A DNA stretch of 64,000 nucleotides from a virus: positions 420 to 64,419 of the IMG/VR virus record IMGVR_UViG_3300031949_000029; one strand, 5' to 3'. The position numbers and the translations under genes are program-made. A model generated the notes under the pieces. The model saw nothing but the letters and a program-made list of their open reading frames with translations, had not been told where the DNA came from and searched no databases. Numbering within the stretch: the first letter of the stretch is position 1; every line of letters starts with the position of its first letter. Below are positions 4,495-13,627 of this stretch, in pieces.

Positions 4495-4569
4495 TGGCAG
4501 GGAGAGGCAGAGTCGAACTGCCATCGGCAGGGTCAAAGCCTGCTGGCTTGCCTATTAGCCTATCCCCCT
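4495..4569 (-). tRNA. tRNA-Gln(TTG)
   Basis: Cloverleaf; anticodon loop CT-TTG-AC; encoded CCA. Confidence 0.92.
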
Positions 4570-5287: not shown

Positions 5288-5770
5288 TCATCCAATTTTT
5301 CTGCTGATCAGTTTGCCTTGGGTCCGCACTAGATGGTCAGCACAATGAGAGGCAGCCCAGGCGTCTGGCTTGATCAAGACTTTGAAACCCTGGCTTACCA
5401 CTAGGCCGACCAGCTCCTGGATATACAGGCTGCTCTTGTGAGCCACCACCGGGTTAGCGTCGATGTGGATAGAGAGAGCCCCAGGAACAACTGACTCTAA
5501 CTCCATACCTAGAGCAACGGAGAGCCAGACCTCCCTAAATAGACGCTCTCGAAGGCTAGTGATGCGCGGAGTAATTTCTCGCCTATAAGCTGCACGTCCA
5601 CCTTTGCCAGGAGTCAAAACCGCTACCACAGTCACAAACTGAGTGTAGCGAGCTACTTGCAGAGAATCAGTGCCAACGTGGACGGCTTGGCCAGAGAGCG
5701 CAGCGACCCTAACAAACTCCCCGATGTCTGGGATCTTGATGCCCCCAAGGGTACGCCAGCTGCTGGTCAT
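5288..5770 (-). CDS. RNase H-like YkuK (DUF458) family protein
   Basis: HVGTDS...FVTVV...RERLFREVWLS...IHIDAN...IKPDAWAASHCAD. Confidence 0.8.
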   Translation of the reverse strand: MTSSWRTLGGIKIPDIGEFVRVAALSGQAVHVGTDSLQVARYTQFVTVVAVLTPGKGGRAAYRREITPRITSLRERLFREVWLSVALGMELESVVPGALSIHIDANPVVAHKSSLYIQELVGLVVSQGFKVLIKPDAWAASHCADHLVRTQGKLISRKIG

Positions 5771-6476: not shown

Positions 6477-6478
6477 AT

Positions 6479-6504
6479 TGGTACTCCCGGCTGGACTCGA
6501 ATCC
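6479..6504 (-). pseudogene. 3' fragment of a tRNA (T-loop, acceptor 3' strand, ACCA)
   Basis: GGATTCGAGTCCAGCCGGGAGTACCA with no 5' half. Confidence 0.7.
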
Positions 6505-6518
6505 TATCTGTGTTATCA

Positions 6519-9730: not shown

Positions 9731-9773
9731 CGGATCTCCTATAGTTGGCTGACAGGTCCTGCAGAGGACGTTG

Positions 9774-9846
9774 CTCAGGCGGTAGGAGTCGAACCTACAT
9801 CCTTCGCCTTAACAGGGCGCTGCTCAACCAATTGAGCTACACCTGA
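9774..9846 (-). tRNA. tRNA-Asn(GTT), CCA not encoded
   Basis: Loop CT-GTT-AA; ends G-CAA. Confidence 0.88.
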
Positions 9847-10769: not shown

Positions 10770-10842
10770 TGGAAGCGGAGGAGGGAGTTGAACCCTCCCG
10801 CGATAGGGTATGAACCTACGCTGGCCTCCGGGCCTCCCCGCA
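10770..10842 (-). tRNA. tRNA with CAT anticodon (Met/fMet-like), atypical core
   Basis: Loop TT-CAT-AC; U1:U72 mismatch; 4-nt D-loop; U73-CCA. Confidence 0.7.
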
Positions 10843-11878: not shown

Positions 11879-11901
11879 TAATTAGCTGGCTCCCTGTTGA
11901 A

Positions 11902-11975
11902 TGGCCCAGCTGGGATTCGAACCCAGATTACCACAGCTCTTAAGGCTGGGCGCTGTGCCAGTTCGCTACTGGGCC
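11902..11975 (-). tRNA. tRNA-Leu(TAA), short variable region, CCA not encoded
   Basis: Loop CT-TAA-GA; A73. Confidence 0.82.
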
Positions 11976-11976
11976 A

Positions 11977-12245: not shown

Positions 12246-12320
12246 TGGTGCAGGCACTGGGACTTGAACCCAGACCAGGCTGGTTAAGAGCCAGCTATGC
12301 TGCATTGACACCATGCCTGC
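12246..12320 (-). tRNA. tRNA-Lys(CTT)
   Basis: Loop CT-CTT-AA; CCA. Confidence 0.92.
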
Positions 12321-12321
12321 G

Positions 12322-12690
12322 TGGAGCCGGGACTTGCTGGTACTGCACGTGTCTTGATCGTCCCAGCAGTAGCCCGGCATGGAACCCCACGCACCGGGTA
12401 AGTCCAAGTGGTTAGCCAGTGCTTACCAACACCAGGCCACCTGGCGGTACGTGGGGGTGCGGCGGTACTGCCCGGCGAGCCTCTCCTGTCACCCAGAGAG
12501 CAGTGGGGGCCTTGAGGACTTGTTCCAGTCTATCTAGGGCGTCAACCGCCCATCCTCGTCATCCTCTGGATCTCGGCCATCGAGCCGGAGTTGCACCGGC
12601 ATGCCCAGGGGAGCGACCTTGCTGGGCAGCGGACAGAGCATGACCGTCGAGGGTCGAAGCTCCCTTCGAACCCCTCGACATGCCCTGTCA
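12322..12690 (-). ncRNA. Candidate large structured ncRNA ending in TCCA
   Basis: Several long helices, a T-loop-like hairpin, and a terminal GCCGGG/CCCGGC-T-CCA; no credible ORF. Confidence 0.6.
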
Positions 12691-12695
12691 TTTCT

Positions 12696-12770
12696 TGGAG
12701 CTGCGGAGTGGCTTCGAACCACTGTCTGCGCCGTACCAGGACGCTGCTCTTCCCATTGAGCTACCACAGC
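12696..12770 (-). tRNA. tRNA-Thr(GGT)
   Basis: Loop CT-GGT-AC; CCA. Confidence 0.9.
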
Positions 12771-12774
12771 AGTC

Positions 12775-12848
12775 TGGAGCGAGTGAGCGGACTCGAACCG
12801 CCGTCATCAGCTTGGAAGGCTGAGGCCCTACCATTGGACGACACTCGC
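12775..12848 (-). tRNA. tRNA-Gly(TCC)
   Basis: Loop CT-TCC-AA; U73-CCA. Confidence 0.93.
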
Positions 12849-12850
12849 TC

Positions 12851-12960
12851 TGTGGTGGCCAGACTCGACACTGGCTGTCCCGGCTGCGGGCTATGCGTGT
12901 AGAATATCTACACGATCCGCGACATGTCCCGCACCGCGTGTCCTTCCACGCCGCACCACA
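12851..12960 (-). ncRNA. tRNA-shaped RNA with an enlarged, branched anticodon domain
   Basis: Acceptor TGTGGTG/CACCACA; D-arm GCGTG-GAAGGA-CACGC; T-arm GCCAG-TGTCGAGT-CTGGC. Confidence 0.65.
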
Positions 12961-12970
12961 TTCGATCTAT

Positions 12971-13267
12971 GCCCTCAGTCCCTCAGTCCATCCATAACCC
13001 TACTGAGGACGACCAGGGTCCGCGCTCTGCGAGTGGATGGTCTCGCCAAAGCCGGTTGGGTGGAGGCCCTTAATGGGGACCGGCGGCTCCCCTACGCTTG
13101 TCGGGAGATTGGAGCGTGACTCTCCCATTGAGGGCTCAAGCGGAAGCCCTATCTATGGGGCGGTGGAGGGTAGAGAGAGCAGGTGTCACGTGTGCCGTAT
13201 ACCGGACGCTGCAGCGGCGGGCTGGCGGTGACACTGCATCTGCTCTGTTATTCCCCCCGGTGCCCCC
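12971..13267 (-). ncRNA. Candidate multi-pseudoknot ncRNA
   Basis: 5' long hairpin domain plus four H-type pseudoknot-compatible pairings (see finding). Confidence 0.65.
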
Positions 13268-13342
13268 TGGAGCGTGGAAGGGGATTCGAACCCCCGTCTC
13301 GGCCTTGGCAAGGCCGTGTGCTACCGGCTGCACCATCCGCGC
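13268..13342 (-). tRNA. tRNA-Gly(GCC)
   Basis: Loop TT-GCC-AA; U73-CCA. Confidence 0.92.
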
Positions 13343-13343
13343 A

Positions 13344-13414
13344 TGGAGGTAGAGCTTGAGAAGGGGAAGGGCTAGCCCACCACCGGCCCTGCGAAATTCT
13401 CTCCCTGCTCCACC
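13344..13414 (-). ncRNA. Rod-like hairpin RNA ending in TCCA
   Basis: GGTGGAGC/GCTCTACC-T-CCA; fills the slot between two tRNAs. Confidence 0.6.
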
Positions 13415-13417
13415 GTA

Positions 13418-13492
13418 TGGTAGCCCTGTCGGGATTCAAACCCGAGTCACATGGCTGAGAACCATGCATGCTAATCGCTGCACCACAGGGCC
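13418..13492 (-). tRNA. tRNA-Glu(CTC)
   Basis: Loop TT-CTC-AG; CCA. Confidence 0.88.
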
Positions 13493-13494
13493 AT

Positions 13495-13560
13495 TGGTGC
13501 TCGGGTTGCGTACCGAGCCCCCGTCTACGCTATGAAAAAATCATGCGGTCGGCGGGACGA
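13495..13560 (-). ncRNA. Two-hairpin RNA ending in an ACCA minihelix
   Basis: GCTCGG-TACGCAAC-CCGAGC-A-CCA preceded by a CCCGCC/GACGGG hairpin; 5' end uncertain. Confidence 0.5.
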
Positions 13561-13627
13561 AACTCTACCTTACCTTGTCAGGTATGAAGTTAGTCAGTTG
13601 TCAAAGAGCCATAGGCGCTGGGCCTGC

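Follow-up and report, generated by a model that had tools for sequence, protein, structure and literature searches.

The stretch of DNA analysed here (64,000 nt, hereafter the window) comprises nearly all of a 64,976-nt IMG/VR phage contig (IMGVR_UViG_3300031949_000029; estimated completeness 88 %) and carries a long transfer RNA (tRNA) array in which three short elements that are not tRNAs each end in an encoded CCA just ahead of a true tRNA. ARAGORN identified 32 tRNA genes on the minus strand between positions 4495 and 14611, and a 33rd tRNA was called by Rfam only (6596-6519, 30.1 bits). CCA was encoded by 31 of the 33, the exceptions being tRNA-Asn(GTT) (9773-9846) and tRNA-Leu(TAA) (11901-11976), and the gaps between adjacent tRNAs were mostly 0-1 nt, with one of 4 nt and one of 16 nt. 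In our assessment there is about an even chance that the three elements represent tRNA-like ends of non-tRNA inserts, whose CCA and 1-2 nt junction would keep them processable by RNase P and 3' exonucleases. The elements, designated (i) to (iii), and the tRNAs next to them are as follows.

12322-12378, minus strand: element (i), a 57-nt hairpin with an interrupted 14-bp helix, ending U-CCA, followed by 1 nt (C) and then tRNA-Lys(CTT) from 12320
12246-12320, minus strand: tRNA-Lys(CTT), downstream neighbour of (i)
13344-13414, minus strand: element (ii), 71 nt, tRNA-sized, with an 8-bp terminal helix, ending U-CCA
13268-13342, minus strand: tRNA-Gly(GCC), downstream neighbour of (ii)
13495-13518, minus strand: element (iii), a 24-nt microhelix with a 6-bp stem and an 8-nt loop, ending A-CCA, 2 nt before tRNA-Glu(CTC)
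13418-13492, minus strand: tRNA-Glu(CTC), between (iii) and (ii), relocated relative to all related arrays

Sequence and folds confirmed the initial annotation of this region, which had placed all three elements on the minus strand at these coordinates and had described each as an acceptor-like helix followed by one discriminator base and an encoded CCA, without a cloverleaf. The terminal helices of (i), (ii) and (iii) comprise 6, 8 and 6 bp, the discriminators are U, U and A, each followed by CCA, and all three elements have G at +1 preceded by an unpaired 5' flank, with U (i), C (ii) or G (iii) at -1. In (i), GCCGGG pairs with CCCGGC and the pairing extends into the interrupted 14-bp helix (free energy -24.1 kcal/mol, z score -2.7); another possible 8-bp partner lies at 12367-12360. 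This element folds on its own as the terminal hairpin of a 375-nt spacer. The terminal helix of (ii), GGTGGAGC/GCTCTACC, includes one G-U pair, and the element is separated by 3 nt from tRNA-Glu(CTC) upstream and by 1 nt from tRNA-Gly(GCC) downstream; its whole-molecule fold is unremarkable (z score -0.5, no better than shuffles). The fold of (iii) has a z score of -4.35. A spacing like that of true tRNAs had also been claimed and was borne out, the elements lying 1-2 nt before a tRNA against array gaps of mostly 0-1 nt; because nearly all tRNAs of the array encode CCA and follow one another so closely, this spacing matches that of real tRNA junctions. The architecture common to the three elements, namely a helix starting with G, one unpaired base, CCA, 1-2 nt and then a true tRNA, is that of the array's own tRNA-tRNA junctions.

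No Rfam family, including the tRNA family RF00005, matched (i)-(iii) at E≤10 even with a search space of only 75-140 nt, and ARAGORN detected no tRNA at any of them in standard, relaxed or mitochondrial modes. Their interiors were no closer than shuffled interiors to 101 tRNAs from the window and two related arrays. ARAGORN likewise found no transfer-messenger RNA (tmRNA), no tmRNA-family match fell on the elements, and G3:U70, the minihelix determinant of alanyl-tRNA synthetase, was present in none of the three; pair 3:70 is C3:G70 in (i) and U3:A70 in (ii) and (iii), and the wobble of (ii) lies at 4:69 (G4:U69). Two possible origins were considered and rejected, as the elements showed no residual similarity to the 101 tRNAs that would mark them as recent copies of array tRNAs, and no repeat family was found to which they could belong. 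A possible RNase P RNA within the long spacers was likewise dismissed, with no RF00010 match in the window. No sigma-70-type promoter or terminator was found at the three elements. We regard the elements as non-decoding, and nothing suggests that they are charged.

Motifs consisting of a stem of at least 6 bp followed by N-CCA are common genome-wide, with 142 on the elements' strand, (ii) overall folds no better than shuffles, and the pattern was chosen after inspecting the sequence; all three points favour the view that ordinary GC-rich hairpins simply precede CCA beside tRNAs by chance. Set against this are the counts themselves. Such motifs ended 0-3 nt before a tRNA at 3 of the 25 tRNAs with a non-tRNA upstream flank, where positional nulls predicted 0.14-0.18 and dinucleotide shuffling of the flanks 0.15; none of the 2000 shuffles produced as many as three. 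Approximately 5 of 11 non-coding spacers end in CCA 0-2 nt from the next tRNA, which also speaks against chance. Chance is therefore a very improbable explanation of the pattern.

Relatives of the array were found via homologues of a PF04308 gene that the window carries amongst its tRNA-Ser genes. The same tRNA order together with the PF04308 gene was present in five phage contigs (L032, L088, L090, L091 and L094) and, in part, in two bacterial contigs (L089 and L092), the order being Trp, Gly, Tyr, Gly, Thr, Lys, Leu..., Asp, Ala, Glu, Met, Val, His, Pro, Gln, Asn, Lys, Ile, Thr, Phe, Thr, Glu, four Arg, Ile, Ser, PF04308, Ser, Cys and Gln. In the window and the seven related arrays, the PF04308 gene always lies beside tRNA-Ser genes. 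These arrays contain up to ~35 tightly packed tRNA genes each and occur in unrelated phages and bacterial contigs; nearly all tRNAs of the relatives encode CCA, and most junctions measure 1-10 nt. Long tRNA arrays are known to spread by horizontal transfer (PMC8421152), and on the basis of shared gene order the window cluster is a member of a widespread, horizontally moving long tRNA array family, in keeping with that report. Judged against these relatives, all three elements sit where the window lineage has gained sequence and are lineage-specific add-ons. One relative (L091) was informative for (i) and none for (ii) and (iii).

Element (i) forms the 3' end of a large insert between tRNA-Thr(GGT) and tRNA-Lys(CTT), with the following features.

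12321-12695, minus strand: non-coding insert of 375 nt from tRNA-Thr(GGT) to tRNA-Lys(CTT), made up of independent hairpins (z score -2.9), with (i) as its 3' end
12583-12599, minus strand: T-arm-like hairpin (5 bp, 7-nt loop) after a CCCAG/CTGGG hairpin, homologous to the 3' part of the RNA in the same slot of L091
12380-12456, minus strand: hairpin H2, a 72-nt rod-like, near-perfect hairpin (z score -4.2), followed by UU-CCA, 1 nt and (i), a near-miss of the N-CCA pattern

The junction between tRNA-Thr(GGT) and tRNA-Lys(CTT) measures 1-2 nt in L032, L088, L090 and L094, 212 nt in L091 and 375 nt in the window. The L091 insert adopts one large tRNA-like fold, in which a 9-bp helix joins the ends and a T-arm-like hairpin stands beside the 3' strand, and it ends in U-CCA-U directly before tRNA-Lys. 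Two adjacent hairpins, CCCAG/CTGGG and the T-arm-like hairpin, are shared by the two inserts (local alignment z score 4.3, 0 of 300 shuffles), and because of this the inserts are, on alignment, at least partly homologous. Both end in helix-U-CCA-N, the helix partner being long-range in L091 and local in the window. Retention of U-CCA-N in the L091 slot is the sole evidence of conservation for any of the elements, and it is ambiguous, since the ancestral type of Thr/Lys junction seen in the relatives already consists of T-CCA and 1-2 nt, so that the U-CCA-N of (i) and L091 may have been inherited rather than selected. A MITE-like (miniature inverted-repeat transposable element) origin, with terminal inverted repeats and a duplicated target site, was considered for the L091 insert and rejected because on the left side the 5-nt repeat is not immediately adjacent to the 9-bp terminal pairing. 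A second long near-perfect hairpin of the 375-nt insert lies at 12632-12689, and ARAGORN in mitochondrial mode miscalls H2 as a tRNA.

Elements (ii) and (iii) flank a tRNA that has moved. In every relative tRNA-Glu(CTC) follows tRNA-Ala and mostly precedes an atypical Met-like tRNA, whereas in the window it lies between tRNA-Tyr and tRNA-Gly(GCC) and is flanked by (iii) and (ii). The recipient spacer is homologous across relatives, CTTTGACAACTGA occurring in both the window and L091 and in variant form in L032, L088 and L090, and L091 also has the window's layout of polA, tRNA-Trp, tRNA-Tyr, spacer and tRNA-Gly(GCC). In the relatives no hairpin intervenes between this spacer and the tRNA that directly follows it, tRNA-Gly(GCC) or tRNA-Tyr, and no homologue of (ii) or (iii) was found in the seven related arrays. 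Conservation of the NCCA end, put forward initially as a check on the elements, is thus seen, ambiguously, in one homologous slot for (i) and not at all for (ii) and (iii). One further strand of the recipient spacer is related to (ii).

13560-13569, minus strand: distal 10-nt strand, a potential 10-bp pairing partner of the 3' strand of (ii)

Located 155 nt upstream of the 5' strand of (ii) (13407-13414), it also repeats that strand directly, though imperfectly, over 8 nt, and the two copies bracket the block of (iii) and tRNA-Glu. The repeat may have been left behind when tRNA-Glu(CTC) was relocated. The spacer motif upstream of tRNA-Gly(GCC) was located at 13598-13613 in the window, L091:2027-2039 and L032 ~5385-5400, with TGGCTCTTTGACAACT present in the window and L032. 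The CTTTGACAACTGA/TGGCTCTTTGACAACT motif contains TTGACA, at a distance from the tRNA in relatives that is unfit for a sigma-70 promoter.

These gains and movements raise the alternative that the N-CCA-N ends are leftovers or short duplications of tRNA 3' ends, produced by insertions or by the relocation of tRNA-Glu, and that the helices are by-products without a role, for example of inverted duplications. The array does contain rearrangement relics, to judge from one unambiguous scar.

6477-6518, minus strand: tRNA 3'-half scar comprising a T-arm, the acceptor 3' strand and ACCA, 2 nt before tRNA-Arg(TCT)

This sequence is 88 % identical to the 3' end of tRNA-Val (repeat family D10) and directly follows the tRNA at 6596-6519 called by Rfam only; we interpret it as a rearrangement scar on the strength of that similarity. 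The final hexanucleotide of (i), GCTCCA, is also that of tRNA-Thr upstream, and the final pentanucleotide of (iii), CACCA, also that of tRNA-Tyr upstream, whilst the possible inheritance of U-CCA-N at the Thr/Lys junction, the position of (ii) and (iii) on either side of a relocated tRNA, the imperfect repeat of the 5' strand of (ii) and the absence of the elements from the seven related arrays all point the same way. A displaced 3' end nevertheless leaves the perfectly complementary 5' strands unexplained, and, for given CCA positions, stems of at least 6 bp in three of the five CCA-ended spacers are unlikely, with a probability of ~0.005 as estimated from the strand-wide rate of such motifs. 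Neutral decay would also not yield an intact 8-bp helix like that kept by (ii) around an interior without tRNA similarity, and the L091 insert too ends in a helix directly before U-CCA, formed with a different pairing partner. Overall we consider a neutral origin somewhat unlikely.

CCA-ended RNAs also occur elsewhere in the relatives. L091 contains a second CCA-ended insert, of 117 nt, between tRNA-Arg(CCG) and tRNA-Arg(ACG), and the insert of the window in this slot, of 58 nt, has a CCA flush with the tRNA and no helix. The L091 slots accommodate two CCA-ended tRNA-like RNAs, at L091:2617-2820 (~204 nt, Thr(GGT)/Lys(CTT)) and L091:8507-8621 (~115 nt, Arg(CCG)/Arg(ACG)), both of which have a terminal helix resembling an acceptor stem as well as a T-arm-like hairpin. 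L033 carries a 68-nt element, GGGGAC...GTCCCC-U-CCA (L033:16538-16605), 1 nt after tRNA-Pro(TGG) and 4 nt before tRNA-Gly(GCC), which gave no tRNA-model match. Its position is similar to that of (ii), and homology between the two was considered and rejected, their alignment being at random level. Inside the array of L033 we also identified a minimised class A RNase P RNA (L033:11798-12085; RF00010, 166.9 bits, E 3.7e-54, 288 nt) with the conserved core and the GGU motif present, located 5 nt after tRNA-Val and flush with tRNA-Arg; L034 carries the same gene. No account of a phage-encoded RNase P RNA came up in a full-text literature search. The presence of this RNA within the L033 array suggests that such arrays are under pressure at the step of RNase P processing.

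A processing role for the elements of the window can be formulated as follows. The array is presumably transcribed as long precursors, in which a host RNase P cut at the 5' end of each downstream tRNA would release an upstream fragment bearing helix-N-CCA plus 1-2 nt. Trimming of this fragment by 3' exonucleases would then leave a protected, exonuclease-resistant, tRNA-like end. Element (ii) would have to be detached from tRNA-Glu, because the 3' end of that tRNA lies 3 nt upstream, and here RNase P would probably also cut at the element's own G+1 through contacts with the helix and RCCA, freeing the tRNA-Glu 3' end. The N-CCA-N sequence was probably inherited or duplicated from the tRNA junction that received the insert, with the paired end keeping that junction processable, and inserts would persist in the array when such a tRNA-like end is kept. 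Bacterial RNase P is known to recognise the acceptor/T-stem helix, to pair with 3' RCCA and to cleave such hairpins as well as natural non-tRNA substrates, including phage RNAs (PMC11143913). In E. coli, tRNAs that lie close together in a polycistronic transcript are separated by RNase P without other nucleases (PMC2190699), and in vitro RNase P matures arrays of directly linked tRNAs in this way (PMC12381190).

The case for this role is anatomical, and several observations weigh against it. As (ii) and (iii) have no homologue, there is neither covariation nor evidence of purifying selection for them, and the elements are dispensable for array function because the closest arrays work without them. 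Nor is a CCA end required for a tolerable junction, since other structured spacers abut tRNAs without one (12851-12960). Elements (i) and (iii) both follow long spacers rather than tRNAs, so that a cut at their 5' ends is unneeded for any tRNA, and (iii) has only 6 bp and a G at -1.

Minihelices can be charged with amino acids in vitro. A third explanation holds that the elements are free minihelix RNAs acting in trans, either as decoys for acceptor-end enzymes or toxins (AbiEii/MenT-type nucleotidyltransferases, CCA-adding or -trimming enzymes) or as aminoacylated carriers. It draws on the acceptor-like helix with N-CCA and G1:C72, on the G1-C2 and U73 that (i) has in common with the phage's own Gly and Thr tRNAs, and on a non-decoding tRNA look-alike between tRNA-Asp and tRNA-Ala in L032, L090 and L091, which indicates that the lineage keeps such RNAs. 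Against these stand the lack of conservation of (ii) and (iii), the absence of G3:U70 and of an anticodon, the main identity element for glycyl- and threonyl-tRNA synthetases, the mere 6 bp of (iii) and the absence of any sequence or loop motif common to the three elements that would hint at a shared partner. We consider free minihelix RNAs improbable. The roles suggested in the initial annotation, namely aminoacyl carrier, decoy for anti-tRNA defences and modulator of the stringent response, found no support in the same features (no G3:U70, no anticodon, no homologue of (ii) or (iii) in seven arrays), and a role in processing explains the anatomy with fewer assumptions than any of them. A broader variant, for which we see only a slim chance, would have the excised helices and the array's anticodon-less tRNA look-alikes form an acceptor-end decoy toolkit that soaks up tRNA 3'-end factors and protects the 33 phage tRNAs; candidate targets would be AbiEii/MenT-type abortive-infection toxins, CCA-trimming nucleases and acceptor-stem-cleaving toxins.

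Other unusual RNAs of the array include a 110-nt tRNA-shaped RNA at 12851-12960, 2 nt before tRNA-Gly(TCC), which has no CCA (fold z score -2.7) and is built of a 7-bp acceptor helix, a T-arm with an 8-nt loop and a branched middle. An atypical Met-like (CAT) tRNA, which scored weakly against the tRNA model, was located at 10770-10842 in the window, L026:2683-2755 and L094:16001-16089, and is conserved across relatives either beside tRNA-Val or after tRNA-Glu(CTC). Amongst the protein-coding genes of the window are a UDG-polA fusion, a terminase and a P22-like portal, together with the PF04308 gene (YkuK/DUF458, RNase H fold; 5288-5770, Pfam match), the product of which may have a tRNA-related role, and a vWA gene whose best named matches are planctomycete proteins.

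Searches with other parts of the window contributed little to the set of relatives. DNA comparison with cultured phages returned tRNA-level matches only. The vWA gene is widespread, its matches reaching no more than 57 % identity across most of the gene and up to 62 % in part of it, and is no marker of relatives, and no relatives were found for the neighbouring 159-aa open reading frame. Relatives of polA in IMG/VR and JGI metagenomes displayed only 42-54 % identity, two being complete genomes without any tRNA, and among them only L026 carries tRNAs, two plus one Met-like; a search with the polA C-terminus gave no close relative and led to L094. An exact 22-mer from tRNA-Glu had no match, and a 16-mer of the shared spacer motif gave chance matches and L032's own contig only.

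If the proposed processing role is correct, the elements would suggest a simple rule for long phage tRNA arrays, whereby an insert survives when it ends like a tRNA, and the few known non-tRNA targets of RNase P would be joined by natural helix-NCCA substrates that are encoded in a genome. The comparison also places the window in a widespread family of mobile tRNA arrays with many non-canonical CCA-ended RNAs and one relative with its own RNase P RNA, which makes this family well suited to studies of how polycistronic tRNA precursors are processed. The published accounts of long tRNA arrays consulted here cover tRNAs and their regulation, and CCA-ended non-tRNA inserts are not described in them.

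Among known systems, the initial annotation had pointed to two stable non-tRNA RNAs in the tRNA cluster of phage T4, and the T4 record does contain them as rnaD and rnaC. Like the elements described here, these are non-tRNA RNAs occupying slots of a phage tRNA cluster, with gaps of 1 nt between tRNA-Arg and rnaD and 6 nt between rnaD and rnaC, compared to 1-3 nt in the window. An encoded A after rnaD completes ACCA, and rnaC has a canonical T-arm. In contrast to the elements, however, rnaD and rnaC are 119 and 139 nt long, fold differently, have no predicted terminal 5'/3' helix and lie at the end of the cluster rather than immediately before tRNAs. A BLAST comparison of both with the window matched only the T-loops of true tRNAs, with no similarity to the elements.

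Plant mitochondrial t-elements and mascRNA mimic tRNAs but do not decode; by attracting tRNA-end-processing enzymes they set the ends of RNAs (PMC1920247; Rfam RF01684). They differ from the elements in keeping a T-arm or cloverleaf-like fold and in having no encoded CCA; RF01684 gave only sub-threshold matches on true tRNAs of the window and none on the three elements. The remaining comparison is with hairpin substrates of RNase P, which comprise the model substrates AT1 and pMini3bp and the natural pre-4.5S RNA, phage M3 RNA and C4 antisense RNA of P1/P7. For the elements of the window, cleavage is only predicted, (i) and (ii) have a U discriminator, and there is no T-loop for the specificity domain; a setting within an array, flush with the next tRNA, is undescribed for the known substrates. 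What all three elements have in common with these substrates is a single-stranded 5' flank, a helix and a 3' RCCA for the GGU of RNase P RNA (PMC11143913), with G at +1 in each of the elements.

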